A DNA stretch of 64,000 nt from an uncultured Gammaproteobacteria bacterium (GTDB lineage Bacteria; Pseudomonadota; Gammaproteobacteria; JBGSLN01): NCBI GenBank assembly GCA_963695245.1, contig OY968770.1, positions 805,894-869,893 of the forward strand. Reading direction: 5' to 3'. Shown here one piece after another: positions 1,580-62,540 of the stretch. The position numbers were made by a program, and so were the translations under genes. Every line of letters starts with the position of its first letter. Position 1 is the first letter of the stretch. Below the pieces are notes generated by a model that saw only the letters and a list, made by a program, of their open reading frames with translations, searched no databases and was not told where the DNA came from.

Positions 1580-1681
1580 ATGTAGGTTGGGTTGATTAAG
1601 CCCAACAGCCGTGGCAATTAAATTAGGCTGTAATTAAATGAATATCCTGTTGGGCTTCCTTACGTCAGCACCAACCTACAT
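1580..1681 (-). repeat. REPIN/MITE-like nested palindromic element, copy 1 (reverse orientation, left arm degenerate)
   Basis: tgtaggttgg...cccaacagccgtggcaattaaattaggc...ctgttgggcttccttacgtcagcaccaacctacat. The centre is the reverse complement of the centre in the other copies. Confidence 0.85.
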
Positions 1682-1702
1682 TGAAACCGAAAATCAAAGT
1701 AA

Positions 1703-1738
1703 ATGTAAGGTTGGGCTGACAAAGGAAGCCCAACCTAT
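1703..1738. repeat. Solo REP-like hairpin (single arm), abutting the stop codon of the downstream minus-strand gene
   Basis: atgtaaggttgggctgacaaaggaagcccaacctat. Stem ggttgggct / agcccaacc, 9-nt loop. Likely also serves as the terminator for the hslVU-DUF971 operon. Confidence 0.7.
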
Positions 1739-1751
1739 ATAATAGTATCCA

Positions 1752-2045
1752 TCAGGCTTTTTTTAAACTTTGTCCTAATTCGTAGAGATAAGAAAAAGTA
1801 TATAACCCACTTTGATGCCCATCATCAAAAATGAACTTCAAAGCGTAGTTCCCCACCGGTTCGATTTGAATAATATTAACAGCCGGATCAATTCCGGCTA
1901 CCATGGCTGGATTTTTCATCTGAGCAGAGGGCGAGTGTCTTCGCAAAAAATCAGTGGAAAATTCAAAGCTTTTGCCATCTTCATAACGAAGCTTCAATGT
2001 TTTTTGCTTTTGCAAAAGCTTAATTTCAACCGGTGTCTTTGTCAT
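1752..2045 (-). CDS. DUF971-family protein (gamma-butyrobetaine hydroxylase-like N-terminal domain)
   Basis: 97 aa. ...AMVAGIDPAVNIIQIEPVGNYALKFIFDDGHQSGLYTFSYLYELG, a typical DUF971 C-terminus. Start ATG overlaps the hslU stop (TAATG). Confidence 0.6.
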   Translation of the reverse strand: MTKTPVEIKLLQKQKTLKLRYEDGKSFEFSTDFLRRHSPSAQMKNPAMVAGIDPAVNIIQIEPVGNYALKFIFDDGHQSGLYTFSYLYELGQSLKKA

Positions 2046-3400
2046 TATAAAATAAAATGGCTAAGATCTTCATCACCTACCAGATTCTGTAAATGCTCAT
2101 CTACGTAAGCCGCATCGACTTTATAGGATTTATGACTGTTGTCAGAAGCTTCAAAAGAAAGCTGCTCTAACAACCGCTCCATCACAGTGTGCAGTCGTCT
2201 TGCGCCAATATTTTCAGTTTGTTCATTCACTTGAAAGGCCAATTCTGCAATACGTTTGACTCCATCTTTGGTAAATTCAAGATTCACTTCTTCGGTTTGC
2301 AACAGTGCCTGATACTGCTCTGTTAAGGAAGCATCTGGTTCTGTTAAGATTCTTACAAAATCTTCCGCTGACAAGGCAGACAATTCTACGCGAATGGGTA
2401 AACGACCCTGTAACTCCGCAATTAAGTCCGAAGGTTTTGCCATGTGAAAAGCGCCGGATGCGATAAATAAAATATGATCCGTTTTGACAACACCATGTTT
2501 TGTGGAAACACTGCTGCCTTCTACTAAGGGTAGTAAATCCCGCTGCACCCCTTCACGGGACACATCAGCACCACTTGTACTTTCCCGTCGGGTGACTTTG
2601 TCGATTTCATCTAAAAAGACAATGCCGTTTTGTTCACAGTTTTCAATGGCTTGAGATTTGATTTCTTCTTCATTAATAAGTTTGGCCGCCTCTTCATCTT
2701 TTAAAATTTTAAAGGCATCTTTAACTTTTAATTTTTGCAGTTTTTTCTTCTCCGACCCCATACTCTGGAATAAATTCTGCAACTGACCGGTCATTTCTTC
2801 CATACCGGGCGGTGCCATGATTTCTACGCCAAACTGAGGCGAAGCTGATAATTTAATTTCAATTTCTTTATCATCCAAATTTCCTTCACGGAATTTTTTT
2901 CTAAAAACCTGACGAGTGCTGGATTCTTCTGCTTTTTTCTCTGGTTCTTCAGGTTCACCGTCAAATTTTGCTTTAGAGCGGGCAGGCGGTAATAACGCAT
3001 CTAAAATGCGCTCTTCTGCCGCTTCTTCCGCTGCGTATTGCACCTGTGTCATGGCTTTTTCCCGTTCCATTTTAACGGAAACATCTGCCAAATCCCGAAT
3101 GATGGAATCCACATCTCGGCCTACATAACCTACTTCCGTGAATTTGGTAGCTTCTATTTTAATAAAAGGGGCTTTGGCCAACTTTGCCAGCCTTCTGGCA
3201 ATTTCGGTTTTACCCACACCGGTAGGACCTATCATCAAAATATTTTTCGGCATAATTTCTTCGCGCATTTTTTCGTCCTCAATACGCGACCGTCGCCAGC
3301 GGTTACGAAGAGCAATGGCTACTGCCCGCTTTGCTTCTTTTTGTCCAATAATATGTTTGTCTAATTCAGATACAATTTCTTTCGGAGTCATCACTTCCAT
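2045..3400 (-). CDS. hslU: ATP-dependent protease ATPase subunit HslU
   Basis: 451 aa. [20 protein letters not shown]..., Walker [21 protein letters not shown] Shine-Dalgarno sequence about 9 nt upstream of the ATG. Confidence 0.97.
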
Positions 3401-3426
3401 TACTAAAACCTCTAAAATGAATGGGA

Positions 3427-3972
3427 TTAAATATCACTGTCTAATACTTCAATGGTGAGATTATGGTTGGTATAAACACAAATATCAGCAGCGATATTCA
3501 GACTGTTTTCCACAATGTCCCTGGCACTTAAATCGGTATGAGCAACTAACGCTCTGGCAGCAGATTCAGCAAAATGCCCACCAGAACCAATTGCCATTAA
3601 GTAGTTTTCAGGCTCAATTACATCCCCGTTACCGGAAATAATCAGGGAGGCTTCTTTGTCAGCAACACACAAAAGGGCTTCTAAGCGTCTGAGCATTTTA
3701 TCGGTACGCCAGTCTTTGGCCAGCTCCACGGCAGATCTCACCAAATGCCCCTGATGTTTTTGTAGTTTTGCTTCAAAACGCTCAAATAAAGTAAATGCAT
3801 CCGCGGTACCACCAGCAAAGCCTGCCAGCACTTTGTCATTATAAAGCCTTCTGATTTTGCGGGCATTCCCTTTCATCACGGTATTACCCATAGAAACTTG
3901 ACCATCACCACCAATCACAACTTTGCCTTTTTTTCGAACAGACAAAATGGTAGTACCTCTAAATTGCTCCAT
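3427..3972 (-). CDS. hslV: ATP-dependent protease subunit HslV
   Basis: [37 protein letters not shown]...GSGG. The ORF track starts at a TTG (3987). The first ATG gives [10 protein letters not shown]. The catalytic N-terminal Thr motif is GTTIL, so a short propeptide is possible. Confidence 0.9.
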
Positions 3973-4007
3973 GGTTGTTCTTCTCAATTTAACTGACTGA
4001 TTTTTTT

Positions 4008-4035
4008 ATATGGGGGTGAATATTTGAAATTCAAG
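4008..4035 (-). promoter_or_regulatory. Sigma-32 (heat-shock) type promoter upstream of hslV
   Basis: Minus strand reads CTTGAA-tttcaaatattca(13 nt)-CCCCATAT. This matches the sigma-32 consensus CTTGAA-N13-15-CCCCATnT. hslVU is a classical sigma-32 regulon member. Confidence 0.55.
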
Positions 4036-4125
4036 CGTTGCGCGTATTAAAGTTGCCACTTGCAAGTTCATCTGCTTTATTTTTTTGTGCTAAACTGGTT
4101 TTTATTGCTAATTTTACCATCCTTT

Positions 4126-6627
4126 ATGCTGCTGCTTATCCTGATTTTATTTGTCCTCATCGTTATTTTGTTTGGGCGCTTAAGTGTCTTAAACAATCGA
4201 GTTCGCTATTTAGAATCTCATACCCCATTGCCAAAGCAGCCTGTAACTGAACAAAAAGCTCCGTCTCTTACTAAAAAGATTAAATCTTCCCTCGAAAGCC
4301 CAAGAAAACCAAAGACTTTGAACGCACCTTTTTTCAATAAAATTAATCGCTTTCTTACCTTAACCAACAGTTTTGTAGCCATTGGTATGCTATTGCTGTT
4401 TTTTGGTGTTGCTTTTTTACTCAATTATGCCATTGCGGCAGGCTTACTTCCTTTGTCCATTCGATTATTGGGAATTTTTATTCTGGCAGTGGTGTTGTTT
4501 TTTACAGGTATCTACCTTGAGAAAAAGCGCTTTAACTATGCCGTGGTTTTAGAAGGTGGCGCTTTGGCGATTTTGTATTTATTGATTTTTGCCGGATTCT
4601 ACCTTTATGACTTAGTCTCAGCCATATTTGCCTTTGTGTTTTTTATCCTCTTAAGTGCTTTTACATTATATTGGTCCTTCAGGCGCAATCATAAAGCATT
4701 GGCTGTGATGGGCATTATTGGCGGGTTTTTTGCACCCGTTCTATTCAGCGCTCAAAGTCTGCCTGATATTTATTTGTTTTTGTATTATTTCATATTAAAT
4801 CTGGCTGTGTTTACCCTGGCCTGGTTTAAAAATTGGCGAGCACTGAATGTGCTTGGATTTATTTTTACTTTTTTAATCTCCACCCTTTGGTACGCCACCA
4901 GTTATTTCTATGTAATATTTTTGTGGGTATTTTTTGTTGAGTATCTCATCATTGCTCTACTCACTGCCCGTCATCAACCTGATTACAAACAAGGATTGGT
5001 GGAAGCCAGTCTGGTTTTTGCTTTGCCTGCCGTGGTTTTTTTATTGCAGGCTTTTTATGTGGATTTTCATAAAATACCACTGGCATACACCGCTGTTGCT
5101 TTAGGTACTGCGTATTTGCTGTTAAGTGCCTTTATGTATTATTACTTCAACCATGTCTATCGGATTTTGGCAGGCGCTTTTTTGGGTTTGGCTTTAATCT
5201 TTTTTACTCTGGCAGTGCCTTTAATACATTCTGGCAGTTGGGTTGAAAATATTTGGGCATTGGAGGCCATTGCTTTGATATGGGTAAGTCTGAAACAGCA
5301 TAGGCCCTGGTTGCGTTATGGTGGTTTGGCTTTACTTATATTTGCCGATGGCATTTTTTACTTAAGCAACGGCTTCGAGGTATATTTTATCCAGGCTTTG
5401 CTTTTGGATATTTTGATATTATTTTTAAGTCATATATTGATAGCCTATCAGTTGTGGCGTGGGAAATCTCAGATTAAAGTGCTGGAATATGCTTTAGCAA
5501 AAATCATTTTTGCCTTTGGTGGATTACTGTGGTTCTGGCTGCTGTATCAGCTTACTAAATATTATTTACCCATCAATTATGAAAATAAAGTCTTAATTAC
5601 CATGCTCAGTTTATCAGCGCTTTTGGCATTATTGATAGAAAAATGGTCGAACTGGCATTGGTTAAAAGGGTTTACTTTGAGTTTACCGCTATTCATTATA
5701 TTATTTGCTGTTAATAATTATACCACTGATAACGTATTTTTTTATGGTGACTATATGAATGGTTTTTGGTTGCTGCCATTTTTAGTCACTTATAGTGTGC
5801 TTAGCTGTTATGGCCGTGAGCCGGATAAGCCTCTGATAGTTTTCTGTCATTTCAGTACGTTTATTTTATTGATGTTTTTGTTGGCAGATTATATAAATCG
5901 AATGTTACTGCTGCCAGAGCATTTTAGCGTTACCTGGCGAGCTTGTTGTTTTGCGCTGGTGCCTGGGATATTTTTAATATTGCTTCAATTTAATCATCGT
6001 CTTTTGCAAAAACACTTTGGAACATATGTTATTTATTATCAAAAATCATTAACTTATCTTTTATTAGGCTACTTGTTTTTATGGCTGATTGTGGCAAATT
6101 TGTTTTGTTCAGGGGATCCATCGCCCTTAGCTTATCGGGTAATTTTAAATCCATTGGATTTTGTCAGCCTGACTGCTTTTATCATCACAGCTATCGGATT
6201 ATTTTATCCTGAAACAGGTGTCTTTCATTGTTTCAAAGGCTACAAAAAAACCTGGATTACCATTTTTGCGCTCACAGGCTTTGTTATATTAAATGCCATT
6301 ATTATAAGAGCCATTCATTTTATGTTAAACGTGCCCTGTGAATTTGATGCGATGTTACAATCGCAAATGCTCCAGGTAACTTTGTCACTGACTTGGTCCA
6401 TAACTGCTTTGGCATTGATGATTTCAGCACAGGCAAGAAAAAACCGTGCGCTGTGGTATGGAGGCGCTGCGCTTGCTTTTTTAACAATTTTAAAATTGTT
6501 TTCTCTGGATTTAAGTCACTCACAAACCCTGGAAAGAATTATTGCTTTTATTGGGGTGGGCGCGGTCTTACTGCTGGTGGGTTACTTTGCGCCGATTCCA
6601 CCGCTTTTGAAGCAATTGGATAAATAG
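4126..6627 (+). CDS. Large polytopic inner-membrane protein, DUF2339-like
   Basis: About 833 aa from the first ATG (the track start at 4060 is a TTG). N-terminal TM helix, then LSVLNNRVRYLE, then a Pro/Lys-rich linker and over 20 predicted TM segments. Architecture matches DUF2339. Confidence 0.55.
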   Translation: MLLLILILFVLIVILFGRLSVLNNRVRYLESHTPLPKQPVTEQKAPSLTKKIKSSLESPRKPKTLNAPFFNKINRFLTLTNSFVAIGMLLLFFGVAFLLNYAIAAGLLPLSIRLLGIFILAVVLFFTGIYLEKKRFNYAVVLEGGALAILYLLIFAGFYLYDLVSAIFAFVFFILLSAFTLYWSFRRNHKALAVMGIIGGFFAPVLFSAQSLPDIYLFLYYFILNLAVFTLAWFKNWRALNVLGFIFTFLISTLWYATSYFYVIFLWVFFVEYLIIALLTARHQPDYKQGLVEASLVFALPAVVFLLQAFYVDFHKIPLAYTAVALGTAYLLLSAFMYYYFNHVYRILAGAFLGLALIFFTLAVPLIHSGSWVENIWALEAIALIWVSLKQHRPWLRYGGLALLIFADGIFYLSNGFEVYFIQALLLDILILFLSHILIAYQLWRGKSQIKVLEYALAKIIFAFGGLLWFWLLYQLTKYYLPINYENKVLITMLSLSALLALLIEKWSNWHWLKGFTLSLPLFIILFAVNNYTTDNVFFYGDYMNGFWLLPFLVTYSVLSCYGREPDKPLIVFCHFSTFILLMFLLADYINRMLLLPEHFSVTWRACCFALVPGIFLILLQFNHRLLQKHFGTYVIYYQKSLTYLLLGYLFLWLIVANLFCSGDPSPLAYRVILNPLDFVSLTAFIITAIGLFYPETGVFHCFKGYKKTWITIFALTGFVILNAIIIRAIHFMLNVPCEFDAMLQSQMLQVTLSLTWSITALALMISAQARKNRALWYGGAALAFLTILKLFSLDLSHSQTLERIIAFIGVGAVLLLVGYFAPIPPLLKQLDK

Positions 6628-6709
6628 GCAAATCCTGCAAACTTCTTTTTTTGCCAATTGTTCAATTTTTCTTAAATAACCATTCAATAGATCTGCATGA
6701 GTAATCTCT

Positions 6710-7039
6710 TTAATGGATGTACTTACAAGGCGCTTTGTTTTTGCTCAAGTGTCTTGGTTTAAACGTTTCACCATCGAGCGGAACAATAAGCGTTTTTATA
6801 TCTGGAGGTAAATGAAGTTTATCAGGGTTTTCAAACACTCGCTCATGGACACCTGTGAAATGTATATCTGTTTCGGCAGGCTTAAGAGCACCAATATATA
6901 AACATCGTTCACTGAAGGTTTTTTCACGTTCAAAGTTTGCTGTGAGCTCATTTTTATCTTCAATAGCAACTGGCTTGTCTTTTGAAAAAAATCTCGCCTG
7001 AACTTCATCGGCCAAACGAACTTTTTTAACTGCTTTCAT
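6710..7039 (-). CDS. Small conserved hypothetical protein
   Basis: 109 aa from the ATG (MKAVKKVRLADEV...). GAGGA Shine-Dalgarno sequence 8 nt upstream. The track's longer start is a GTG. Confidence 0.5.
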   Translation of the reverse strand: MKAVKKVRLADEVQARFFSKDKPVAIEDKNELTANFEREKTFSERCLYIGALKPAETDIHFTGVHERVFENPDKLHLPPDIKTLIVPLDGETFKPRHLSKNKAPCKYIH

Positions 7040-7093
7040 AAATTTATCCTCACAGGACACACGAAAAACTTAGTATTAAATATAGAAACTAAT

Positions 7094-7197
7094 CCATGTA
7101 GGTTGGGCTGACGAAGAAATCCCAACAGGGTATTCATTTAATTACGGCCTTATTAAGTTGCCACGGCTGTTGGGCTTCCTTCGTCAGCCCAACCTAC
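7094..7197 (+). repeat. REPIN/MITE-like element copy 2
   Basis: atgtaggttgggctgacgaag...ggtattcatttaattacggccttattaagttgccacggctgttgggcttccttcgtcagcccaacctacat. The right-hand outer flank tgtaaatcgaag follows. Confidence 0.9.
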
Positions 7198-7271
7198 ATT
7201 TATTTTGCCTGTAAATCGAAGTTTTTCAGAATTCCTATATCATAAGAATGATACAAAACACTCTAGGAAAA

Positions 7272-7300
7272 TTGCTGAGTATTGCGGCAGGTGCTATACT
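7272..7300 (+). promoter_or_regulatory. Predicted sigma-70 promoter of acnA
   Basis: TTGCTG - 17 bp - TATACT, about 55 nt upstream of the acnA start. Confidence 0.4.
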
Positions 7301-7352
7301 TTGGCTACCTTATTTGTGCAGGGTTCAACCTGCGTCCATCGAGGAGAAACCA

Positions 7353-10025
7353 ATGTCTCTTAACAGTTTTAAAGCCCGGGCAAAATTATCCGTGGGTGAT
7401 AAAGAATACACTTATTTTGATTTAAATAAAGCCATGGAATCGGGCGTAGGCGATGCCAAAAGACTTCCGTTTTGTTTAAAAGTTTTGCTCGAAAACTTAC
7501 TTCGCTACGAAGATGGGGAAAGCGTTAAAAAAGAAGATATTAAAGCTGTACAGCAATGGCTTGAAACAAAATCTTCAAAAAAAGAAATTGCTTACCGACC
7601 TGCCAGGGTACTGATGCAGGATTTCACCGGTGTACCCGCTGTAGTAGATTTAGCTGCAATGCGTACTGCTATGGAAACCATGGGCGGTAACCCGACTAAA
7701 ATTAATCCACTAACGCCTGTTGATTTGGTCATTGACCACTCGGTACAAGTGGATAAATTTGGTACAGATGAAGCCTTCAAAGCCAATGTGGAAATTGAAA
7801 TGTCCCGTAATAAAGAGCGCTATGAATTTTTGCGTTGGGGTCAAAAAGCTTTTGATAATTTTCGCGTGGTACCACCCGGCACAGGTATCTGCCATCAGGT
7901 GAATTTAGAATATCTTGCTAAATCTGTTTTTACTCGTGATATTGAGGGTGAAACCTTTGCTTATCCTGATACTTTAGTTGGCACAGACTCACATACTACC
8001 ATGGTGAATGCTCTGGGTGTTTTAGGCTGGGGTGTTGGTGGTATCGAAGCGGAAGCTGCCATTTTAGGGCAACCGGTTTCAATGCTGATTCCAGAGGTCA
8101 TTGGCTTTAAACTGAATGGGAAATTATCTGAAGGGGTAACAGCGACTGATCTTGTGCTGACGGTTACTCAAATGTTACGTGCCCGGGGTGTGGTGGGTAA
8201 ATTTGTTGAGTTTTATGGTCCAGGTTTACATGAGTTACCTTTAGCTGATAGAGCAACTATTTCAAATATGGCGCCAGAATACGGTGCAACCTGTGGATTT
8301 TTCCCCATCGATAAAGAAACCATTGTTTATTTAAAACTCACCGGCCGTGATGAAGCCACTATCCATCTGGTTGAAGCTTACTGTAAAGAGCAAGGGCTTT
8401 GGCACGATGAAAATACCCAGGAACCTGTATTTACAGATACTTTAGAACTTGATTTAAGTACTGTTGTACCAAGTCTTGCGGGTCCTAAACGTCCACAAGA
8501 CAGAGTTGCCATGAAAGATTTGGCCAAAGCTACTCAGGAAGCATTAAAGACTACTCAAAAAGCTTCTGAAAAAGATAAAACTTTTGCTGTAACCGGAGAG
8601 GATTTTGAATTAAAACATGGTGCTGTGGTTATTGCTGCTATCACCAGTTGTACCAATACTTCTAATCCCAGCGTGTTAATGGCAGCAGGTTTGCTGGCTG
8701 AAAAAGCATTGAAAAAAAATCTTATGCGTAAACCCTGGGTTAAATCATCTTTAGCGCCTGGTTCTAAAGTGGTGACAGAATACCTTGAAAAAGCGGGTTT
8801 GCAGACTCATTTGGATGACTTAGGTTTTAATCTTGTGGGTTACGGCTGTACTACCTGTATCGGTAATTCCGGACCTTTACCAGAAGCCATTGCCAAGTGT
8901 GTCACCGACAATGATTTAACGGTTTGTTCTGTTTTATCCGGCAACCGTAACTTCGAAGGTCGGGTACATCCGCAGGTTAAAGCCAACTGGCTTGCATCGC
9001 CGCCATTAGTGGTTGCTTACGCACTGGCAGGAACGACCGATATTGATTTAACCACTGATCCTTTGGGTCAAGATGCCGATGGCAATGATGTTTATTTGAA
9101 AGATATCTGGCCAACTAATAAAGAAGTCGCGCATGCCTGTGCTAAAGTAGACGGGGAAATGTTTCGTAAAGAATATGCCGATGTGTTTGCTGGTGATGAA
9201 ATCTGGAAAAAGATCAAAGTCACTGAAGGTAAAACCTATGAGTGGAGTGATACTTCCACTTATGTGCAACATCCCCCTTACTTTGTGGGCATGAAAGAAA
9301 AACCAGAGCCCAAAGCAGATATTGTAAAAGCCAATATTTTGGGATTGTTTGGTGACAGCATCACAACCGATCATATCTCTCCTGCAGGTGCTATTAAGCA
9401 AGACTCACCCGCTGGTCACTACTTACAGGAACATGGCGTTAAACATTATGATTTTAACTCTTATGGTTCCCGTCGGGGCAATCATGAAGTGATGATGCGC
9501 GGAACTTTTGCCAATATTCGCATTCGGAATGAAATGGCGCCTGGTACGGAAGGCGGTGTCACCACTTATATTCCAACAGGCGAAGTCATGCCTATCTACG
9601 ATGCAGCGATGAAATATCAGGCGGATAGTAAAGATTTAGTAGTGATTGCCGGCAAAGAATACGGCACCGGTTCATCAAGAGACTGGGCTGCTAAAGGTAC
9701 TTTGTTGCAGGGCGTAAAAGCTGTTATTGCAGAAAGCTTTGAACGTATTCACCGATCTAATTTAATTGGTATGGGAGTATTGCCGCTACAGTTCAAAGAT
9801 GGTACAGACAGAAAAACTTTAAAACTTGATGGCTCAGAAACGATTACCATCAAAGGTATTAATCATATTAAGCCTTTTGATGAACTGGACATGGTAGTCA
9901 CCCGAAAAGATGGCTCTACCGAAAATGCCAGGGTCTTAGTCAGAATCGACACCCTCAACGAGCTTCATTATTATCAAAACGGTGGCATTTTGCACTTTGT
10001 TTTACGTAATTTGATGAAGTCATAA
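7353..10025 (+). CDS. acnA: Aconitate hydratase A
   Basis: 890 aa from [18 protein letters not shown] Shine-Dalgarno sequence upstream. Aconitase family motifs and the Fe-S cysteines ([14 protein letters not shown]) are present. The 5' extension to 7248 in the track runs toward a REPIN and is rejected. Confidence 0.95.
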
Positions 10026-10043
10026 AACAAATTTCGAGATATA

Positions 10044-10150
10044 ATGTAGGTTGGGCTGACGCTTCGAAGCCCAACAGGGTATTCATTTAATTATGGCCTT
10101 ATTTAGTTGCCACGGCTTGTTGGGCTTCGAAGCGTCAGCCCAACCTACAT
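10044..10150 (+). repeat. REPIN/MITE-like element copy 3
   Basis: Arms gacgcttcgaag / cttcgaagcgtc. Followed by the outer flank ttgattttgaatgtaaatcgaag. Confidence 0.9.
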
Positions 10151-10202
10151 TGATTTTGAATGTAAATCGAAGTTTATCGTAAGTCCTAAAAGGGTATTTA
10201 AC

Positions 10203-10431: not shown

Positions 10432-10479
10432 CATAAGTATAGCGCATGATTACAAGATGTTATGATTGGACTCTATGAC

Positions 10480-10827: not shown

Positions 10828-10898
10828 AAAGTTATCTAAACGTCCAGATTTTCAACATTCAGTGCATTAGATTGGATAAATTCTTTTCTGGGCTCAAC

Positions 10899-13280
<2,382 letters not shown>

Positions 13281-13426: not shown

Positions 13427-13530
13427 ATGTAGGTTGGGCTGAGGTCGGAAGCCCAACAGAGTATTCATTTAATTACGGCCTTATTTAGTTGCCACGGCCT
13501 GTTGGGCTTCCGACCTCAGCCCAACCTACT
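13427..13530 (+). repeat. REPIN/MITE-like element copy 4 (between recF and gyrB)
   Basis: Arms gaggtcggaagc / gcttccgacctc. Confidence 0.9.
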
Positions 13531-13568: not shown

Positions 13569-13584
13569 TGTTCCACGTGAAACA
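13569..13584. promoter_or_regulatory. parS site 1 (ParB-binding centromere-like site)
   Basis: TGTTCCACGTGAAACA, exact match to the canonical parS 16-mer. Lies immediately 3' of the recF stop codon. Confidence 0.85.
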
Positions 13585-14676
13585 TTATCCAGAATTCGGC
13601 ATATCAAGCACAGTGTTATGTTTCACGTGGAACATTTTATGTTGCTTAAATACATTTTTAACTGAGGCTAATTGTGACTCACTGATACCACTAATAAAAA
13701 ATTGCCCTTCTAAATTTTTTAAACATTGAATGAATTGTTCTACTTTTGATTTGTCTAATTCAGCATGAATATCATCAATTAAAAAAATGGCTTGTTTCCC
13801 AGCTAGTTGATTGACTAACCGTGCCTGTGACAGACACATTAGCCAAACAAATAACTTTTGCTGGCCTCGGGAGAGTGCATCTACAATGGGTTTACGATTG
13901 ATAGTGATTTTGAGGTCTGCTCGATGAATACCATAAAATGTATAACCCAATTCTAAATCTTTTGAAATATTCTTTTGCAAAATTTCATCATATTGTAAAT
14001 CTTTACTCCATCCCTGATAAAAATCAATTTTTACATTTTCATAACAGTAATCCTGTAAAAATGATTTAAAAGGCGGAATAAACTGTTGTAAAAATTTCTG
14101 CCTTGCCTCAGTCACTTTATTAGCTGTTTTGATTAAGATCTCATTCCAGGCAGAAATGACATTTAGAGGTTGCCTCTGCCGAATCGCGAGATTCCTTTGC
14201 TGTAGCGCTTTTTGGTTCTTGCGCCACTGAGTTAAAAAAGAAGGTTCCACGTGAAACACACCTAAATCTATAAACTGTCTTCTAATTTTAGGACCTTCTG
14301 TTAAAAGAGAAAAGCTGTCATTATTTAGGATTTGAACCGGCAATATTTTCGAAATTTCTGCTACAGATACAAATTCACCATCTAATTTCTGATGGTTTAT
14401 CCCCTGATAATCTCTGGAAACCCCAATATTATGTAGTTTTTGTGTTGTATTAAGAAATTTTAAAAATACCAATAATCCATTTTTATCATCCTGTATTACT
14501 CGTTTAGTGAGATGCGTTCTAAAAGAACGACCAAAGCTGCATAAATAAATTGCTTCCAAAAAACTGGTTTTGCCGCTGCCGTTTTCACCATAGAATAAAT
14601 TTACTTCCGGATGAAGCCTGGCTTCTACCGATGAAAAATTACGGAAATGTTCAATTTTTATGAAATGGATGGGCAT
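13585..14676 (-). CDS. recF: DNA replication and repair protein RecF
   Basis: MPIHFIKIEHFRNFSSVEARLHPEVNLFYGENGSGKTSFLEAIYL... Confidence 0.96.
   Translation of the reverse strand: MPIHFIKIEHFRNFSSVEARLHPEVNLFYGENGSGKTSFLEAIYLCSFGRSFRTHLTKRVIQDDKNGLLVFLKFLNTTQKLHNIGVSRDYQGINHQKLDGEFVSVAEISKILPVQILNNDSFSLLTEGPKIRRQFIDLGVFHVEPSFLTQWRKNQKALQQRNLAIRQRQPLNVISAWNEILIKTANKVTEARQKFLQQFIPPFKSFLQDYCYENVKIDFYQGWSKDLQYDEILQKNISKDLELGYTFYGIHRADLKITINRKPIVDALSRGQQKLFVWLMCLSQARLVNQLAGKQAIFLIDDIHAELDKSKVEQFIQCLKNLEGQFFISGISESQLASVKNVFKQHKMFHVKHNTVLDMPNSG
13619..13634. promoter_or_regulatory. parS site 2
   Basis: TGTTTCACGTGGAACA, the reverse complement of site 1. 34 bp from site 1, inside the last codons of recF (MFHVKHN). 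Confidence 0.85.
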
Positions 14677-15846: not shown

Positions 15847-17271
15847 TTAACTGGTCAGTAACCGTAACAGGTTTGTGAAGTCCTCTGCAATATCATTGTC
15901 ATCCTTTTTCAATTCCAAAATTTTACGGTGGGCATGAATAACCGTGGTATGATCCCGTCCTCCAAAAGCATCTCCAATTTCAGGAAGACTGTGACTGGTC
16001 AACTCCTTAGCTAAACTCATAGCAATCTGTCTGGGTCTGGCAACCGAACGACTCCTTCGCTTTGAGAGTATATCAACGACCTTAATTTTGTAGTATTCGG
16101 CCACGGTTTTAATAATGTTATCAATGGAAACTAATTTATCCTGTAGGCTTAATAAATCCTTCAAAGACTCTTTAACCAACTCTAAGGAAATAGGTTTCCC
16201 TGTAAAATATGCATGGGCACTTACTCTTTTTAACGCCCCCTCTAATTCTCTAACATTTGAACGAACCCGCTTGGCAATGAAAAAAGCCACATCATTAGGT
16301 AATTCAATATTAATCTGTTCTGCTTTACTCATCAAGATTGCCACCCGAGTTTCAAGCTCCGGTGGTTCAATAGAAACCGTTAATCCCCAACCCAATCTTG
16401 ACTGCAATCTTTCCTCAACACCTCTGATTTCTTTAGGGAACCTGTCGCTGGTTAAAATAATTTGCTGTCCACCTTCCAGTAAAGCATTAAAAGTGTGAAA
16501 AAATTCTTCTTGTGAGCGATCTTTACCTGCAAAAAATTGAATATCATCAATGATTAACACATTCACACTTCGATAATAATGCTTAAAATCATTAATGCGG
16601 TTGGTTTGTAATGCTTTAACCATATCCGCCACAAACCGCTCAGAATGCAGATAGACAACTTTGGAAAGCGCATTTTCCTGCATAATTAAATTACCCACTG
16701 CATGACATAAGTGCGTTTTACCAAGTCCGACTCCCCCATATACAAACATAGGATTGTATGCTTTGCCAGGATTTTGAGCTACCTGAAGTGCTGCAGCGCG
16801 AGCAAGCTGATTAGATTTACCTTCTACAAAACTTTCAAAAGTAAAAGTAGGGTTAATATTATGCTCGTGTTTAATATCATTTATTTGGATTTTTCTTTCA
16901 GGGCTGGTTCTGACAAAATTATTCACAGCCTCAATATTAACAATTCCACTGGAAGGTTTTTGCTTTTCCCCAATTTTAAGTAAGATTTTAAAATCACAAG
17001 TTTTTTGCTCTTCAATCATCAGATGCTTAAGCTGCTCATGGATTCTTGCCATGTATTTTTCCTTAATCCATTCAAGAACAAATTGATTGGGCGCATAAAG
17101 GGTTAAACTATCTTCAGCAAGACTCTCTGCCTGTAAAGGCCGTAACCAAGTGTTATAAGACTGTTCTGACTCATTTGAAGCCAGTTCCTGCTTAAGTCGT
17201 TGCAGACATTTTTCCCAAATATTAAGCACAAGATTCCCCAATAAGCTGTTGATAAGTTGTGAGTAGCGCAC
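15847..17271 (-). CDS. dnaA: Chromosomal replication initiator DnaA
   Basis: AAA+ ([10 protein letters not shown]) and C-terminal DNA-binding domain (…[14 protein letters not shown]). The start at 17271 is a GTG. An in-frame GTG 16 codons downstream ([12 protein letters not shown]) is an alternative. Confidence 0.96.
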
Positions 17272-17478
17272 TGAATAACCTGTAGAATAACAAAGTCTAC
17301 CTTAAGTTATCCACAGAAAATTTAACTTATTAACAGAAGCAGTTAGGTTATACACAGGGTAAAATATTAGTTAAGCCTATGTTAAGTCATTATTTTCTAG
17401 GCTTTTCCACAGAAAAAACTTACTTAATAATAATATAAAATAAAAATACTTTATATATATTAATAAAATACAGAATCA

Positions 17479-17515
17479 ATGTAGGTTGGGCTGACGCAGG
17501 AAGCCCAACCTACAT
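17479..17515. repeat. Solo REP-like hairpin (single arm) inside the oriC region
   Basis: atgtaggttgggctgacgcaggaagcccaacctacat. 13-bp perfect stem, 9-nt loop. Confidence 0.8.
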
Positions 17516-17562
17516 TGATTAATTTCGTTTTTAATACGAAGAAGACGTAAATCTTATTTAAG

Positions 17563-22500: not shown

Positions 22501-23217
22501 ATGGATTATCATTATTTTAAAGATATTGTGAATAATACTTTTGCCAAAGCCATTGATGCAGATAATCGCCCAACTTTTTTTGAGGTAAACCCAAAATTTC
22601 CGGCTTTACATAACATCACACAGAATTTTGAAACCATAAAATCTGAATTTGAACAGGCGATAGAACAGTTAGACAATTTACCCAAATATCATGAAGTGGA
22701 TCCTGGAGAAAGTGAAATATCTAATACTACCGAAAAAAACTGGAATGTTTTAATGCTGTATCTCTTGGGATATAAACCAGAAAAAAACCGCACATTATTT
22801 CCAAAAACCTGTGATTTATTAAAAGATATTCCCAATCTGGTACAGGCATTTTTTTCTATTTTAGAACCAGGTAAGTCAGTACCAAAACATAAAGGGCCTT
22901 ATCTTGGTTATCTTCGCTATCATTTAGGCATTCAAGTGCCAAAACAAAATCCACCCAGCATTATCGTTAATGATAAACCCTATACATGGAAAGAATCAGA
23001 GGCCGTCATGTTTGATGACTCATGGCCACATGAGGTGATTAACGAAGCTACTGAATCACGGGTAGTGCTGATTATTGACGTACTAAGACCTATGCCCTGG
23101 TGGCCGCAGATACTCAATCGGTTTGTCACTAATGTGATTGCCAAATATACCTACGGTCGCCAAGTGGTCAGTCGCGTTCAAAACAGTGGGATTGAGGTTT
23201 TAAAGCCTATTGATTAA
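22501..23217 (+). CDS. Aspartyl/asparaginyl beta-hydroxylase family 2OG-Fe(II) dioxygenase (LpxO-like)
   Basis: LFPKTCDLL...FSILEPGKSVPKHKGPYLGYLRYHLGIQVP...FDDSWPHEV, the Asp_Arg_Hydrox signature. Start taken at MDYHYF. Confidence 0.65.
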   Translation: MDYHYFKDIVNNTFAKAIDADNRPTFFEVNPKFPALHNITQNFETIKSEFEQAIEQLDNLPKYHEVDPGESEISNTTEKNWNVLMLYLLGYKPEKNRTLFPKTCDLLKDIPNLVQAFFSILEPGKSVPKHKGPYLGYLRYHLGIQVPKQNPPSIIVNDKPYTWKESEAVMFDDSWPHEVINEATESRVVLIIDVLRPMPWWPQILNRFVTNVIAKYTYGRQVVSRVQNSGIEVLKPID

Positions 23218-39290: not shown

Positions 39291-39394
39291 ATGTAGGTTG
39301 GACTGACGCAGGAAGCCCAACAGTGTTACATTTAATTACAGCCTGGTTTAGTTGTCACGGCTTGTTGGGCTTCCTGCGTCAGCCCAACCTACAT
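39291..39394 (+). repeat. REPIN/MITE-like element copy 8
   Basis: Arms gacgcaggaagc / gcttcctgcgtc. Variant centre. Confidence 0.9.
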
Positions 39395-42458: not shown

Positions 42459-42564
42459 ATGTAGGTTGGCGCTGAGGTCGGAAGCCCAACAAGGTATTCA
42501 TTTAATTACGGCCTTATTTAATTGCCACGGCTGTTGGGCTTCCGACCTCAGCGCCAACCTACAT
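42459..42564 (+). repeat. REPIN/MITE-like element copy 9
   Basis: Arms gaggtcggaagc / gcttccgacctc. Outer stems read ttggcgctg / cagcgccaa, a compensated change relative to ttgggctg / cagcccaa. Confidence 0.9.
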
Positions 42565-44222: not shown

Positions 44223-44326
44223 ATGTAGGTTGGGCTGAGGTCGGAAGCCCAACAGGGTATTCATTTAATTATGGCCTCATTTAATTGCCACGGCCGTTGG
44301 GCTTCCGACCTCAGCCCAACCTACAT
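44223..44326 (+). repeat. REPIN/MITE-like element copy 10
   Basis: Preceded by the outer flank acttcgatttacagtcaaaatca. Confidence 0.9.
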
Positions 44327-46124: not shown

Positions 46125-46229
46125 ATGCAGGTTGGGCTGACGAAGAAAGCCCAACAGCCGTGGCCACTAAATTAGGCCATAATTAAATGAATAACTCTGT
46201 TGGGCTTTCTTCGTCAGCCCAACCTACAT
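46125..46229 (-). repeat. REPIN/MITE-like element copy 11 (reverse orientation)
   Basis: atgcaggttgggctgacgaagaaagcccaacagccgtggccactaaattaggccataattaaatgaataac... Confidence 0.9.
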
Positions 46230-47391: not shown

Positions 47392-47497
47392 ATGTAGGTT
47401 GGGCTGAGGAAGGAAGCCCAACAGAGTTATTCATTTAATTACGGCCTTATTTAGTTGCCACAGCCTGTTGGGCTTCCTTCCTCAGCCCAACCTACAT
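47392..47497 (+). repeat. REPIN/MITE-like element copy 12
   Basis: Arms gaggaaggaagc / gcttccttcctc. Preceded by the outer flank acttcgatttacatgcaaattca. Confidence 0.9.
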
Positions 47498-47547
47498 TGA
47501 ATAAAACTGGAATCTTGCGTAAGTTCTGTACAATTAATTTATTTTTT

Positions 47548-48204
47548 ATGAATCCATTAGAAACCCTTATTCACGAACCGACTCATAAAGCCGAGTATGC
47601 TGTCATCTGGCTTCATGGGCTGGGAGCGGATGGTCATGATTTTGAACCTTTGGTGCCTCAGTTAAATTTAAAAAATGTTCGATTTATTTTCCCCCATGCC
47701 AGGGTGCAACCCGTGAGTTTAAACATGGGTATGCCCATGCGAGCCTGGTATGATATTTATGCTTTGGATTCAAGCGCAAAAGAAGACGAAGCAGGCATCC
47801 ATTCAAGCCAAAAGTTAGTGGAACAACTTATTTATACGCAGGTGGAAACAGGCATTCAAGCTGAGAAAATTTTTCTGGCAGGTTTTTCGCAAGGCGGTGC
47901 CATGGCATTGCACACAGCATTGCGTTTTGACCATACCCTTGCAGGCGTTATTGCTTTATCAGCTTATCTGCCTGTAAGAAATCATTTAGGCGCTCACTTA
48001 AATCCAGCTCAAAAAAATACGCCAATTTTTATGGCTCATGGACAATATGATGAAGTATTGCCTGTAAGCTTTGGTCATGGTTCGCAAATGTTACTGCAAA
48101 GTTTGCACTTGAAGGTTAGCTGGTATGAGTATCCCATTGGTCACAGTGTTTGTATGGAAGAAATTGCCGAAGTTAAGCGCTTTATTTTACAAAACAGCCG
48201 CTAA
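47548..48204 (+). CDS. Carboxylesterase/phospholipase-family alpha/beta hydrolase (Abhydrolase_2, YpfH-like)
   Basis: 218 aa from MNPLETLIHEP. ...VIWLHGLGADGHDF..., nucleophile elbow GFSQGG, and a C-terminal His. Confidence 0.8.
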   Translation: MNPLETLIHEPTHKAEYAVIWLHGLGADGHDFEPLVPQLNLKNVRFIFPHARVQPVSLNMGMPMRAWYDIYALDSSAKEDEAGIHSSQKLVEQLIYTQVETGIQAEKIFLAGFSQGGAMALHTALRFDHTLAGVIALSAYLPVRNHLGAHLNPAQKNTPIFMAHGQYDEVLPVSFGHGSQMLLQSLHLKVSWYEYPIGHSVCMEEIAEVKRFILQNSR

Positions 48205-51985: not shown

Positions 51986-51994
51986 AAATAATCC

Positions 51995-54444: not shown

Positions 54445-54450
54445 GTACGC

Positions 54451-55873: not shown

Positions 55874-55886
55874 AATTTGGGAACAA

Positions 55887-56774: not shown

Positions 56775-56856
56775 TAAATTAAAATCCTGAAATGTTGATA
56801 AACAGCAGTGATAATGCTATATATCATGATAATCAGCAGTTCTACTATCGATTATC

Positions 56857-58662: not shown

Positions 58663-58807
58663 AAAAAGCTCATTAGCATGCTGAGATGAAATTAACTCAG
58701 GGCATTTTTCTTGTAGAAAAAACGCAACATTGACACTTTTTCCACGGCAGGCTAAACCTAATACATTATCAATGTGATTTTTATGTTTTTTTGATTAACG
58801 GGTTTTT

Positions 58808-58854
58808 TAATTGTCACGGCTTATTGGGCTTCCTTTGTCAGCCTAACCTACGTA
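58808..58854 (+). repeat. Truncated/degenerate REPIN-like element (right half only)
   Basis: ttaattgtcacggcttattgggcttcctttgtcagcctaacctacgta. Confidence 0.7.
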
Positions 58855-58868
58855 GATTTTTTACAGTA

Positions 58869-59483: not shown

Positions 59484-59487
59484 GGAT

Positions 59488-60408
59488 TTACTCTCCAGGG
59501 CCAGGTTTTGCCCGTGTTTTGCCTTTAATAATAATGGATGGGTTTTGATTTAATTCTGCACTCAGGCTATTTAAGTTTTGCGCCATTTCTTTGATATTTT
59601 TCATAGTATCGTAAGTAATCGGTAAAATATCGTTAGAAAAAGACTGCAAAGTAATGCTGCCCTGTTCAGCGGTTTTATTTAGATTTTTTGCAGTAGCTGA
59701 TAATTCTTTACCCACCGCTTGAATTGATTGGGAGCCTTTATCAATAGAGCGCATAATATCTGGAAAGCTTCTACTGGCTTGTGCTGTGTTTTTCATGACT
59801 TCTTTGAAGTCCACTAAAGCGGTATTAATATTTTCAGAGTTTTTGGCAATCACGTCTGTGAATTTTTGAATATTCTTTAAAGATGCAGCAACGGCTTTAG
59901 TGTTTTTTTCACTTAAAAGTGCTTTAACGTGAGAAGACATGTCTCCCAATTTGTCAGAGAGATTTTCGATAGTTTTATCCAATTTTACTAAAAAAGAAGG
60001 CTTTGCAGGAATCACAGGATATTTTTGTCCCGGTTGCGTCTCTAATAAAGGGGCTTTTTTGCCGGCTGTTAATCCAATATAAGCAATTCCGGTAATTCCC
60101 TGTTCTGTTAAAATTGCGGTGGTGCTTTGAGTAATTGGCACCGAAGGTCTGATTTTTAAAGTTAATATTACCTGCTGAGGATTTTTTAGATTCAGTTCAA
60201 TATCATCTACTTTACCCACATCCACACCATTATATTTTACCGGTGCATTATCGCTTAATCCGGCCACAGATTCATTCATAAAAACCTGATAGATTTTATA
60301 ATTATCGGTATTTATGCCTGCAGAGAGCCAAAGGCCAATGAGAATTGCTACAATCAGCAGGGCAGTTACAAATACGCCCACCAGGGTATAATTAACTTTG
60401 GATTCCAT
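59488..60408 (-). CDS. MCE-domain substrate-binding protein (MlaD/PqiB-like)
   Basis: N-terminal TM helix plus MCE domain (…VAGLSDNAPVKYNGVDVGKVDDIEL…). Confidence 0.8.
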   Translation of the reverse strand: MESKVNYTLVGVFVTALLIVAILIGLWLSAGINTDNYKIYQVFMNESVAGLSDNAPVKYNGVDVGKVDDIELNLKNPQQVILTLKIRPSVPITQSTTAILTEQGITGIAYIGLTAGKKAPLLETQPGQKYPVIPAKPSFLVKLDKTIENLSDKLGDMSSHVKALLSEKNTKAVAASLKNIQKFTDVIAKNSENINTALVDFKEVMKNTAQASRSFPDIMRSIDKGSQSIQAVGKELSATAKNLNKTAEQGSITLQSFSNDILPITYDTMKNIKEMAQNLNSLSAELNQNPSIIIKGKTRAKPGPGE

Positions 60409-60411
60409 TTT

Positions 60412-61179
60412 TTATGTTTCGCTGTATTTTTCCGCTGCCATTTTAGCACGGATATCACTGAAATAACCAATAATCATGGGGTTAGAATTATGCATCATGG
60501 CTTTGATAGGTTCTACCGCCAGTACTTTGCCCTCACCTAAAAAAGCCAATCTGTCCGTGGTGCGCCACAGGGTGTCTAAATCATGGGTCACCATCACCAC
60601 GGTTAAACCGAGGCTTTCGCGTAATTCTAAAATGAGCGAATCCAGCTCACTGGCACCATGAGGATCAAGACCTGCGGTGGGTTCATCCAAAAACAGTAAG
60701 TTGGGATCCAGCGCCAGTGCTCTGGCAATAGCCGCTCTTTTTTTCATGCCGCCACTTAATTCTGATGGGTAGCGTAGTGCCGCTTCTTTTTTTAATCCCA
60801 CCAATTGAATTTTCATCAAGGCCAACTCTTCCATGGTTTTAAGAGGCAAATTAGTTTCATTTTTCATGGGAAACATGACATTCTCAAGCAGATTCATGGA
60901 ACTGAACAAAGCGCCGTGTTGAAACATCATGCCCCAGTGGCCTCGAACCCATTGCTGTACTTTTTTATCACCGTTTAAAATTTCTTTGTCTAGAATTTTA
61001 ATGGATCCTTTGGCCGGTACCAGCATCAAAATGCTGCGTAAAAGGGTGGTTTTACCTGCACCTGATCCCCCTACGATTGCCAGAATTTCGCCATTTTTAA
61101 CTTTAAGATCAATGTCATTGAGAATTTTTTTTCCGGATAATTCAACGCTCATTTGTTGAATTTCTATGATGTTATCCAT
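60412..61179 (-). CDS. ABC transporter ATP-binding protein (MlaF-like)
   Basis: Walker A GGSGAGKTT. Signature LSGGMKKR. Walker B LLFLDEPTAGLD. Confidence 0.9.
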   Translation of the reverse strand: MDNIIEIQQMSVELSGKKILNDIDLKVKNGEILAIVGGSGAGKTTLLRSILMLVPAKGSIKILDKEILNGDKKVQQWVRGHWGMMFQHGALFSSMNLLENVMFPMKNETNLPLKTMEELALMKIQLVGLKKEAALRYPSELSGGMKKRAAIARALALDPNLLFLDEPTAGLDPHGASELDSLILELRESLGLTVVMVTHDLDTLWRTTDRLAFLGEGKVLAVEPIKAMMHNSNPMIIGYFSDIRAKMAAEKYSET

Positions 61180-61180
61180 A

Positions 61181-62293
61181 TCAAATTCCCATCACACTCA
61201 ACACCACAGAGAAAAGGGCATCAGCAATAATAATTAGAAAGATGGCCAGCACAACACTTTTAGTGGTTTGAATCCCAATGCTTTGTGCACTGCCAGAGAC
61301 TTTTAAACCATGAAAGCATCCCACAGAGGCAATGATCCAGGCAAAAACGGGTGCTTTCACAAGTCCAATTACAAAACTTGACAGGGTAATGACTTGGGGA
61401 AACTGGTTGAGGAAATTATTAAAGGTAACCCCAAGAGAAACTTTTGCCATAAACATGCCTCCAAAAAGCCCAAAAATATCACTCCAGACCACTAAAAAAG
61501 GCATGGCAATGATCATGCCTAATATTCTGGGAAAGGTAAGCAATACAGTGGTACTTAATCCCATAGTTTCCAGAGCATCCAGCTCTTCATTGGCTTTCAT
61601 AAGACCAATATGGGCAGTAAAAGCAGAACCCACACGCCCTGCCAGAATAATTGCAGCAATCAAAGGACCAAACTCGCGCAAAATAGCAAGGCCAAGAATA
61701 TTCACTATATATATATTGGCGCCATAGACTTCCAGTTGAACACCAATTTGGTATGCCAGAACTACCCCAATTAAAAAGGTCAAAAATGCGATAATAGGCA
61801 TTGAACGCACGCCAGCAAATTCAATGCTGGCAATCACTGATTTGAAAGGAATATTTTTGGGTTTTTTAAGCAGATTCAGAGTGATTAATACAAATTCACC
61901 CACAAAACTCATCCAGGCATTGATTTCAGAGAATTTATCGATAATTCCCTTACCAAAGCGAGCAAAAATATTGGGTGTTTTAGCTTGGGTTAGGGTATCG
62001 GAGTTTTTGGTTGTTTGTACCAAATGTAATAAAGATTGATGCTGCTGGTTAAAGCCCTGTTCTTTTACTTCAACGCCAGCTTGATTTAGCAAAGTTTTAA
62101 TATGCTCTATTAAATAACCTCCGGCACTGTCGAGGGCGTCAATATCCCTACCGTCCAGTGTTATTGGGTAGGTAGGCAGAACAAGATTATTAAGAGGATT
62201 CTTGGCAATAGATCCCAGATTTCGAACATTCCAGTCACCGGAAAGCTGTAGTGTGTTTTGATTCAGTTCAATTTTAGCAGCTTGATTTGCCAT
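61181..62293 (-). CDS. ABC transporter permease (MlaE-like) with fused N-terminal STAS (MlaB-like) domain
   Basis: 370 aa. N-terminal ~100 aa is STAS-like (…LQLSGDWNVRNL…ITLDGRDIDALDSAGG…). The C-terminal part is an MlaE core (…GPLIAAIILAGRVGSAFTAHIGLMKANEELDALETMGLS…). Confidence 0.8.
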   Translation of the reverse strand: MANQAAKIELNQNTLQLSGDWNVRNLGSIAKNPLNNLVLPTYPITLDGRDIDALDSAGGYLIEHIKTLLNQAGVEVKEQGFNQQHQSLLHLVQTTKNSDTLTQAKTPNIFARFGKGIIDKFSEINAWMSFVGEFVLITLNLLKKPKNIPFKSVIASIEFAGVRSMPIIAFLTFLIGVVLAYQIGVQLEVYGANIYIVNILGLAILREFGPLIAAIILAGRVGSAFTAHIGLMKANEELDALETMGLSTTVLLTFPRILGMIIAMPFLVVWSDIFGLFGGMFMAKVSLGVTFNNFLNQFPQVITLSSFVIGLVKAPVFAWIIASVGCFHGLKVSGSAQSIGIQTTKSVVLAIFLIIIADALFSVVLSVMGI

Positions 62294-62440
62294 GCAGTTA
62301 TTTTTTAAGGTTTTATCTACCCAATCATAATTAAATCTTGAGAAGTAATCTATAGAATAAGCGTGTTTTTGGCGTATTCGTTAATAAATTTTGTTATGAT
62401 AGCTCAAATTTTAGATGAATGCGGTAGCGCACTAGTAAAA

Positions 62441-62540
62441 ATGTAGGTTGGGCTGTTAAGCCCAACAGCCGTGGCAATTAAATAGTGTCGTTATTAAATG
62501 AATACTCTGTTGGGCTTCCTTCGTCAGCACCAACCTACAT
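62441..62540 (-). repeat. REPIN/MITE-like element copy 14 (reverse orientation; one arm shortened as in copy 1)
   Basis: atgtaggttgggctgttaagcccaacagccgtggcaattaaatagtgtcgttattaaatgaatac... Confidence 0.85.

Follow-up and report, generated by a model that had tools for sequence, protein, structure and literature searches.

Repetitive extragenic palindromes (REPs) that are recognised by REP-associated tyrosine transposases (RAYTs) have a common signature, a GTAG that precedes an imperfect hairpin (PMC2817692, PMC3733652). Here we describe repeats of this type in a 64-kb stretch of DNA, referred to below as the window, from an uncultured gammaproteobacterium (assembly GCA_963695245.1, contig OY968770.1, positions 805,894 to 869,893). 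The window, ~38% GC, comes from the replication-origin region, and its repeats are very probably non-autonomous REP doublets forming hairpins (REPINs), each made of two inverted GTAG-type REPs and spread in trans by a RAYT via single-stranded DNA (ssDNA). The kinds of object involved (REP, REPIN and RAYT) are well known, the REP class itself has already been published for Coxiella, and nothing found here alters what is known of REPs, REPINs and RAYTs.

The REPINs of Pseudomonas fluorescens SBW25 (Bertels & Rainey 2011, PMC3116915) resemble the window family in that two inverted REPs and a spacer form one long ssDNA or RNA hairpin. In both cases the elements are extragenic and occur in all types of gap, compensatory changes are found between the two sides, and solo REPs are present as decay products. 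The SBW25 REPINs are linked to a RAYT, whereas the corresponding link of the window family rests on other genomes (see below). The window family also differs in the REP itself (GTAGGTTGGGCT...), in its conserved, asymmetric and unstructured spacer of ~40 nt, and in that 9 of 12 full elements are near-perfect homodimers.

The GTAG REP of Coxiella burnetii, which belongs to the same order, Legionellales, has a head and stem identical to those of the window repeats (GTAGGTTGGGCT...AGCCCAAC). It is associated with a RAYT (YP_001425023), has the loop GAGCTTGCGA and is reported in ~40 copies. Nunvar et al. 2010 (PMC2817692) assign the REP GTAGGTTGGGCTGAGCTTGCGAAGCCCAAC to the RAYT of C. burnetii Dugway, and Wachter et al. 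2018 (PMC5896051) show that the insertion sequence (IS) IS1111 uses the GTAG REP of Coxiella as its insertion target. The Coxiella element QMITE2 (PMC5896051), also an IS1111 target, is 150-190 bp long and has 7-11-nt direct repeats. The window elements, in contrast, measure 100-105 bp, lack direct repeats, have a different spacer and occur with no IS present.

Like the E. coli REPs and the bacterial interspersed mosaic elements (BIMEs) that contain them (Ton-Hoang et al. 2012, PMC3333891; Messing et al. 2012, PMC3479197), the window repeats are GTAG-tagged imperfect hairpins with mismatches at the loop edge. However, the stem differs, and BIMEs pair unlike REPs (Y and Z) with several linkers, while the window elements are mostly homodimers with one type of spacer. 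Di Nocera et al. 2013 (PMC3733652) described GTAG-outward 'HH' dimers with conserved spacers. The window elements share with these the outward GTAG, a conserved spacer within the range of 20-100 bp, and partners able to fold either each by itself or jointly into one large stem-loop. Legionella has 0 occurrences in that survey of 24 GTAG families, and no description of REPINs in Legionella was found in a full-text search of a literature library.

Searched at up to 3 mismatches, the arm motif given in an earlier note on this DNA has 14 matches in the window, and the core pattern GGTTGGGCT-N4-20-AGCCCAAC has 21; shuffled sequence gave 0 with either. A scan of the whole window with a profile hidden Markov model (HMM) made from the 12 full copies (E < 1e-4) yielded 12 full elements of 100-105 bp, along with 2 solo hairpins and a single right-half remnant, and no further matches. 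The title of the earlier note gave 11 full copies, although its own list held 12; a copy is indeed present at each position listed there, and the 2 solo hairpins and the right half were likewise recovered by the HMM. All 15 copies are intergenic. Their mean pairwise identity is 85% (range 77-94%), the spacer being the most diverged part (82% identity, or ~18% divergence). Three full copies (1581, 46126 and 62442) carry the spacer in inverted orientation, the number reported before, out of 12 rather than 11. The copies are the following, with the strand given where they have an orientation.

1581..1682, minus strand: full REPIN, hetero-armed, with the short loop GATTAA in one arm and a 1-nt insertion (GGTTGGTGCT) in the other
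1703..1740, no strand: solo degenerate double-headed REP hairpin, GTAAGGTTGGGCT-GACAAAGGA-AGCCCAACCTATA
7097..7198, plus strand: full REPIN in the divergent hyp109/acnA gap, 2 arm differences
10045..10149, plus strand: full REPIN, 19 nt past the acnA stop, arms exactly complementary with the 10-nt loop GACGCTTCGA in both
13428..13530, plus strand: full REPIN in the recF-gyrB gap; the orthologous gap of the relatives L240 and L241 has no copy
17480..17514 (palindrome 17474-17520), no strand: solo double-headed REP hairpin in the dnaA-rpmH gap, adjoining a DnaA-box cluster; relative L241 lacks the hairpin
28317..28418, plus strand: full REPIN, exactly complementary arms with loop GACAAAGGA; the epmB stop is 7 nt away
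31188..31290, plus strand: full REPIN in a convergent gap, chimeric arms with left loop GAGGTCGGA and right loop GACGAAGGA
39292..39393, plus strand: full REPIN in the tsaC/hemF gap, loop GACGCAGGA, 1 arm mismatch
42460..42563, plus strand: full REPIN ahead of purT in a divergent gap, each arm with a 1-nt insertion that the other compensates (GGTTGGCGCT / AGCGCCAACC)
44224..44325, plus strand: full REPIN, exactly complementary arms, ssDNA fold of -45.5 kcal/mol (z = -14)
46126..46228, minus strand: full REPIN with inverted spacer; the dapF stop is 6 nt away
47393..47496, plus strand: full REPIN in the divergent dapF/esterase gap, exactly complementary arms with loop GAGGAAGGA
58794..58855, plus strand: remnant, consisting of the 3' part of the spacer and a degenerate right arm
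62442..62541, minus strand: full REPIN with inverted spacer, hetero-armed, short loop GTTAA, upstream of birA

Each arm consists of GTAGG, an 8-bp stem (GTTGGGCT/AGCCCAAC) and a 9-10-nt loop with GA..GA edges (tandem G.A). In all 12 full copies two such arms of ~30 nt stand inverted, with GTAG outward, on either side of an asymmetric spacer of 42-44 bp. The consensus reads TCAA-TGTAGGTTGGGCT-GACGAAGGA-AGCCCAACAG, then the spacer (GTATTCATTTAATTACGGCCTTATTTAGTTGCCACGG..), then CTGTTGGGCT-TCCTTCGTC-AGCCCAACCTACA-TTGA. Among the 24 arms of full copies, 22 have GTAGG ahead of the stem; one arm of the element at 46126 has GCAGG instead, and the stems with a 1-nt insertion also deviate. The palindrome reaches 0-6 nt, usually 1-6 nt, past TGTAGG (consensus TCAA/TTGA), for a total of 100-116 bp. 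The arms had been described as exact inverted repeats, which holds for 5 of the 12 full copies. Another 4 differ at 1-2 positions, and 3 are hetero-armed, namely those at 31188 (4 differences), 1581 (8) and 62442 (10).

A single strand of the unit folds into one long hairpin, both as ssDNA (-45.5 kcal/mol, z = -14.0) and as RNA (-70.7 kcal/mol, z = -12.9). RNA folding had been proposed as a check in the earlier note, and its outcome is a stable hairpin comprising the whole unit. One arm folded alone attains only -8.2 kcal/mol, and the spacer alone shows no structure above chance (z = +0.26). By eye, no convincing consensus of an IHF site or of a promoter was found in the spacer. Target-site duplications are absent from 12 of 12 full copies, where the longest flanking direct repeat, 0-2 nt, is at chance level. 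Rfam 15, scanned over the whole window at gathering score, gave 0 matches, and a tRNA scan likewise gave nothing.

The connection with RAYTs comes from other genomes. A scan of 185,579 species genomes with the pattern GTAGGTTGGGCT-N7-12-AGCCCAAC gave at least 117 matching stretches with GC contents of 34-71%, which belong to gamma-, beta- and deltaproteobacteria, to cyanobacteria and to a metagenome-assembled genome (MAG) of Planctomycetota; the same hairpin is present in >100 genomes. Legionella gresilensis and a Coxiellaceae MAG are among the matches listed. The hairpin pairs in those matches comprise 50 GTAG-outward doublets (68-198 bp, median 88), as against 2 GTAG-inward and 7 tandem pairs, and GA..GA edges are found in 69% of the loops. 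In 37 of 43 GA-edged loops with an odd inner length, a Watson-Crick mini-stem of 1-2 bp closes a triloop, mostly GNA. Since several pair types occur in this mini-stem, it represents covariation that was not imposed by the search pattern.

Clustering of all open reading frames (ORFs) of the matched loci gave one recurrent small protein. In loci L049, L065 and L104 a 174-176-aa ORF lies between two GTAG-outward REPs, at most ~40 bp from each, and in L105, L108 and L021 a REP is found at most ~35 bp from one end of the RAYT gene. The ORFs of L065 and L041, the two covered by an NCBIfam scan, match NF047646, 'REP-associated tyrosine transposase', at 193-201 bits (cutoff 80); the nearest detected REP of L041 is ~1.2 kb away. 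The other REP-linked ORFs are homologues of these two (54-70% identity), and members of this RAYT clade are 51-70% identical to one another. With the Pfam family Y1_Tnp, the L065 protein scores above the cutoff and that of L041 just below it. Compared with E. coli TnpA-REP (PDB 4ER8), the L065 protein gives E = 1e-42, which makes the RAYTs beside this REP class clear TnpA-REP homologues. Named homologues of the clade are from Undibacterium, Pseudomonas schmalbachii, Algibacillus, Methylophaga, Methylomonas, Rhodanobacteraceae and Planctomycetota, that is, genera or families carrying the REP. In structure the REPIN thus equals the RAYT-bearing 'REPtron', with the gene swapped for a spacer of ~40 nt. 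The spacer of the window family is lineage-specific, showing no similarity to any other matched locus. All 120 of 120 loci returned by a metagenome scan for it (CCCAACA-N4-7-TTCATTTAATWA) are chance matches or an unrelated repeat, none with REP arms or a RAYT, and a BLAST search of PLSDB plasmids with the element gave no match.

These features lead to the following proposal. RAYTs are HUH/Y1 enzymes belonging to the IS200/IS605 superfamily, and each arm would serve such an enzyme as its recognition hairpin. A RAYT encoded by a single-copy gene elsewhere in the genome would bind the folded single-stranded REP and cut at or near GTAG, and the doublet would be moved or copied as ssDNA into extragenic DNA, without target-site duplication. 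We infer that RAYT-mediated single-strand transposition takes place, or has taken place, in this organism and that a RAYT is encoded in its genome. Effects on the host at the level of mRNA or supercoiling are possible. The earlier note had likewise taken the repeats for REPINs of RAYT type, and this part of its interpretation is borne out by the GTAG hairpin, the inverted folding doublet, the extragenic location, the lack of target-site duplication and the finding of the same REP beside RAYT genes elsewhere and in Coxiella; the terminator role that it added is not (see below). Its alternative, palindromic targets of IS110-family elements, turns out not to compete with the REPIN interpretation, since the Coxiella REP class is itself an IS1111 site; no IS is present in the window. 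Indeed, as that note stated, no transposase of any kind was found among the window proteins.

The GyrB protein encoded in the window is 77-84% identical to those of five relatives and only ~72% identical to those of Legionella species and Legionellales MAGs, which places the host, as judged by this protein, in a deep-branching Legionellales lineage. A search with nhmmer (E < 0.9) gave zero copies of the element in the contigs of the five relatives (L239-L243, 46.8 kb, GC 35.5-39.4%), which span the orthologous rpmH-dnaA-dnaN-recF-gyrB region. In the window this region bears the solo hairpin at 17480 and the element at 13428; the element at 10045 lies ~750 bp beyond gyrB, past an intervening hypothetical gene. 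In the recF-gyrB gap conserved blocks align at both ends, and between them the relatives carry unrelated sequence where the window has a REPIN. In L241 the hairpin is missing from the gap between dnaA and rpmH. The family would have expanded in this Legionellales lineage after its split from the nearest sampled relatives. The same organism is also represented in a public short-read assembly, Logan ERR12040027, whose contig L118 is 99.98% identical to window positions 1669-7147 (1 mismatch in 5479 bp) and ends inside REPINs on both sides. Such endings of a short-read contig are expected for a high-copy repeat and are an indirect sign of a high copy number.

The genes of the window include rpmH/rnpA-yidC-mnmE, dnaA-dnaN-recF-gyrB, topA, acnA, mnmG-rsmG-parAB and those for a WipA-like phosphatase and a VgrG-PAAR protein. 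Of the intergenic bases of the window, 26% belong to the elements. They had been said to occupy nearly every intergenic gap; a copy is present in 12 of the 12 gaps of at least 200 bp, but in only 13 of the 20 of at least 60 bp. By class of gap, copies are found in 5 of the 8 that are divergent, in 5 of the 8 that are co-directional and in 3 of the 4 that are convergent. Proximity to stop codons, previously described as frequent abutment, applies to some of the copies (6-7 nt at 28317 and 46126, and 16-32 nt at 10045, 58790, 44224 and 31188) and not to the rest. A T-run, which would give an uninterrupted U-tract, follows only 2-3 copies, and most are without one. A generic terminator scan flags no element, its loop limit of 3-8 nt making it unable to detect such hairpins. 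The copies have no preference for gene 3' ends. In view of the even occupancy of the gap classes and the small number of U-tracts, a general role as terminators, which the earlier note had thought likely, is not supported. The orientation of the spacer carries no replichore signal ('+' in 3 of 4 copies to the left and 7 of 9 to the right of the putative origin), and the overall excess of 10:3 is not significant (p = 0.09).

Several observations weigh against the proposed spread by a RAYT. No RAYT gene was found in the window. Nor does a RAYT of the source contig appear among the best 120 of ~8000 hits in each of two protein database searches, made with a profile of six RAYTs and with the low-GC RAYT of Algibacillus. 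The commonest loop variants of the window copies (GAGGTCGGA and GAGGAAGGA) break the mini-stem of 1-2 bp kept by 37 of 43 loops elsewhere, so that the window copies may have retained the structure of the single arm less well than copies of other genomes. In the relatives the orthologous gaps are too diverged to provide a clean empty site, only the flanking blocks being anchored, and neither an insertion polymorphism nor an excision product was seen.

The absence of a RAYT from the window, and from the source contig among those best 120 hits, would also fit fossil REPINs, whose spreading RAYT has since been lost and whose copies are immobile relics, maybe still used as landing sites by IS110/IS1111 elements, as the Coxiella REP class is by IS1111. 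The average identity of only 85% (77-94%) points in the same direction, and so do the 3 hetero-armed copies, the 2 solo hairpins and the remnant. However, 9 of the 12 elements keep 0-2 arm mismatches despite a spacer divergence of ~18%, which argues for ongoing symmetrisation or selection, and the RAYT searches covered just the best 120 of ~8000 hits. We therefore consider this explanation unlikely, though it deserves mention.

It could also be assumed that the repeats are RNA or DNA structures selected by the host, acting mainly in termination or in the protection of mRNA 3' ends, and that their copy number reflects function and not mobility. E. coli REPs can stabilise upstream mRNA. The very stable RNA hairpin (-70.7 kcal/mol) and the location of several copies 6-32 nt past a stop codon are in keeping with such a role. 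Yet 5 of the 13 occupied gaps are divergent, with nothing to terminate, and all classes are similarly occupied; uninterrupted U-tracts follow only 2-3 copies, the terminator scan flags none (a weak test, given its loop limit), there is no Rfam match, and the relatives lack the element at the same gaps. This makes a primarily structural role quite improbable. Even less probable is a classical MITE (a miniature transposable element with inverted repeats), i.e. an internally deleted IS (e.g. of IS630, IS5 or IS1) moved by a DDE transposase in the manner of Correia/NEMIS, RUP or ERIC. Elements of that type, ~100-150 bp long with terminal inverted repeats and located between genes, do look like the multicopy intergenic window repeats of ~105 bp with their long terminal inverted repeats. 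Unlike the latter, however, they derive from IS and duplicate their target sites (e.g. TA), whereas none of the 12 full copies has a target-site duplication, their termini are RAYT-type GTAG hairpins identical to those beside RAYT genes elsewhere, and the window encodes no DDE transposase.

The two arms of an element resemble each other more than they resemble arms of other elements. For this comparison the arms were matched directly, with 20,000 permutations, because MAFFT alignment places compensated insertions in non-mirrored columns and its columns were unusable. Arms differ on average at 2.25 positions within an element versus 4.1 between elements (permutation p = 1e-4), and 9 of the 12 full elements have 0-2 differences. 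At least 7 loop variants exist among the arms of full copies, and the nine near-symmetric elements each have identical or almost identical variants in their two arms. In the element at 42460 (e42459), a C inserted in the left arm is matched by a complementary G in the right arm, and the element at 10045 has an identical 10-nt loop in both arms. The elements at 28317 and 39292 have a common spacer variant and differ at two loop positions, the change being symmetric in each. Compensatory changes in REPINs have been reported (Bertels & Rainey 2011, PMC3116915). The compensated indels seen here suggest that one arm may be copied or repaired from the other. Such mirrored variants, indels included, constitute a clean natural data set that may help in deciding how REPIN symmetry returns after transposition.

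Both ends of each solo hairpin carry GTAG. Each arm being self-palindromic, GTTGGGCT and AGCCCAAC recur as direct repeats ~70 bp apart, and slippage between these would remove one arm and the spacer, leaving a solo hairpin as the deletion product. Double-headed REPs are also present in matched loci L012, L037 and L051.

A bolder hypothesis combines two assumptions: that fold-back copying, or else repair of a hairpin intermediate, regenerates one REPIN arm from the other, and that slow compensatory selection is not what keeps them alike; and that this Legionellales lineage gained the REP-RAYT module horizontally. Arm regeneration would account for 1-nt insertions and multi-base loop changes that are mirrored exactly, and for the symmetric loop change between 28317 and 39292, in contrast to the unpaired spacer, which has drifted to 82% identity. 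Horizontal entry would account for the absence of the element from the closest sampled relatives, while a 20-nt head plus stem is identical across distant groups. To our knowledge, the prevailing view is that REPIN-RAYT systems are inherited almost only vertically, and horizontal entry of the module, if true, would contradict it. The two assumptions are put forward jointly in a tentative manner, as it is rather unlikely that both are right.

The window thus represents a dense, lineage-specific expansion of REPINs in an uncultured Legionellales bacterium with a small genome, and one REP hairpin, identical over the 20-nt head and stem, serves several phyla together with one RAYT clade. In practical terms, short-read assemblies of this genome fragment at REPINs, and the 15 sites should be masked or labelled as REPIN in its annotation, as ORF callers place spurious starts within them. 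This concerns the VgrG-like gene, the esterase gene and birA, whose longest ORFs start inside REPINs (28301-28334, 47455-47559 and 62485-62619). Family matches of the esterase and of birA begin 37-50 residues downstream of these starts, which are therefore likely to be spurious and the automatic calls wrong. The VgrG-like start was judged spurious solely from the location of its TTG inside the element.

Four DnaA-box-like sites are found at 17247-17411, just upstream of dnaA, one of them a perfect TTATCCACA at 17307, and the cumulative GC skew has its minimum at ~16-20 kb. The 17247-17411 segment is probably oriC or the dnaA promoter region, with a solo REP hairpin ~70 bp away. A 16-bp palindrome, TGTTYCACGTGRAACA, occurs three times in or just after recF (13569-13584, 13619-13634 and 14243-14258), against a chance expectation of 0.02, and the copy at the recF stop is kept in relatives L240 and L241. 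The recF-gyrB gaps of the relatives hold a different REP-like repeat (in L240 at ~3290-3480, two copies of ..ATCCTGAGCGCAGCGAAGGATCTC..; in L241 at ~9775-9830, partial). Its loop, CTGAGCGCAGCGAAG, is the commonest loop of the GTAGGTTGGGCT REP class; its stem differs and GTAG is lacking.

On the minus strand, 23207-26419 is a 1070-aa ORF with a WipA-like phosphatase domain, of a Legionella effector family. At 25959-26153 it contains a 36-nt tandem repeat in 5.2 copies, encoding acidic repeats of ~12 residues (..LTKEDYDRFKE..). The 601-aa ORF at 26529-28334, also on the minus strand, has a Phage_GPD (VgrG-like) domain and a C-terminal PAAR motif, and from this domain composition looks like a fused spike-tip protein of a type VI secretion system. 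Its annotated neighbours include no further genes of such a system.

The repeat caught by chance with the spacer pattern in the metagenome scan is ~110 bp long (..GCAGAATATTCCCAACAAAGTCGTTCATTTAATTATTCACACTGAATTTTCCTCTGACTGATCCTCAAAAGCTGAC..), is unrelated to the window family and was found on >20 contigs, mainly of sample Ga0210059, among them L131, L133, L139, L140, L147, L158, L162, L181, L184, L194 and L196. In some other genomes the same REP class is found in regular tandem arrays, i.e. as REP or REPIN clusters and not dispersed (L112, 710-1275; L011, 2498-3101; L075, 1305-1784). The spacing of these arrays is ~180 bp in Algibacillus, ~160-210 bp in Vulcaniibacterium and, as doublets, ~205 bp in Plectonema.

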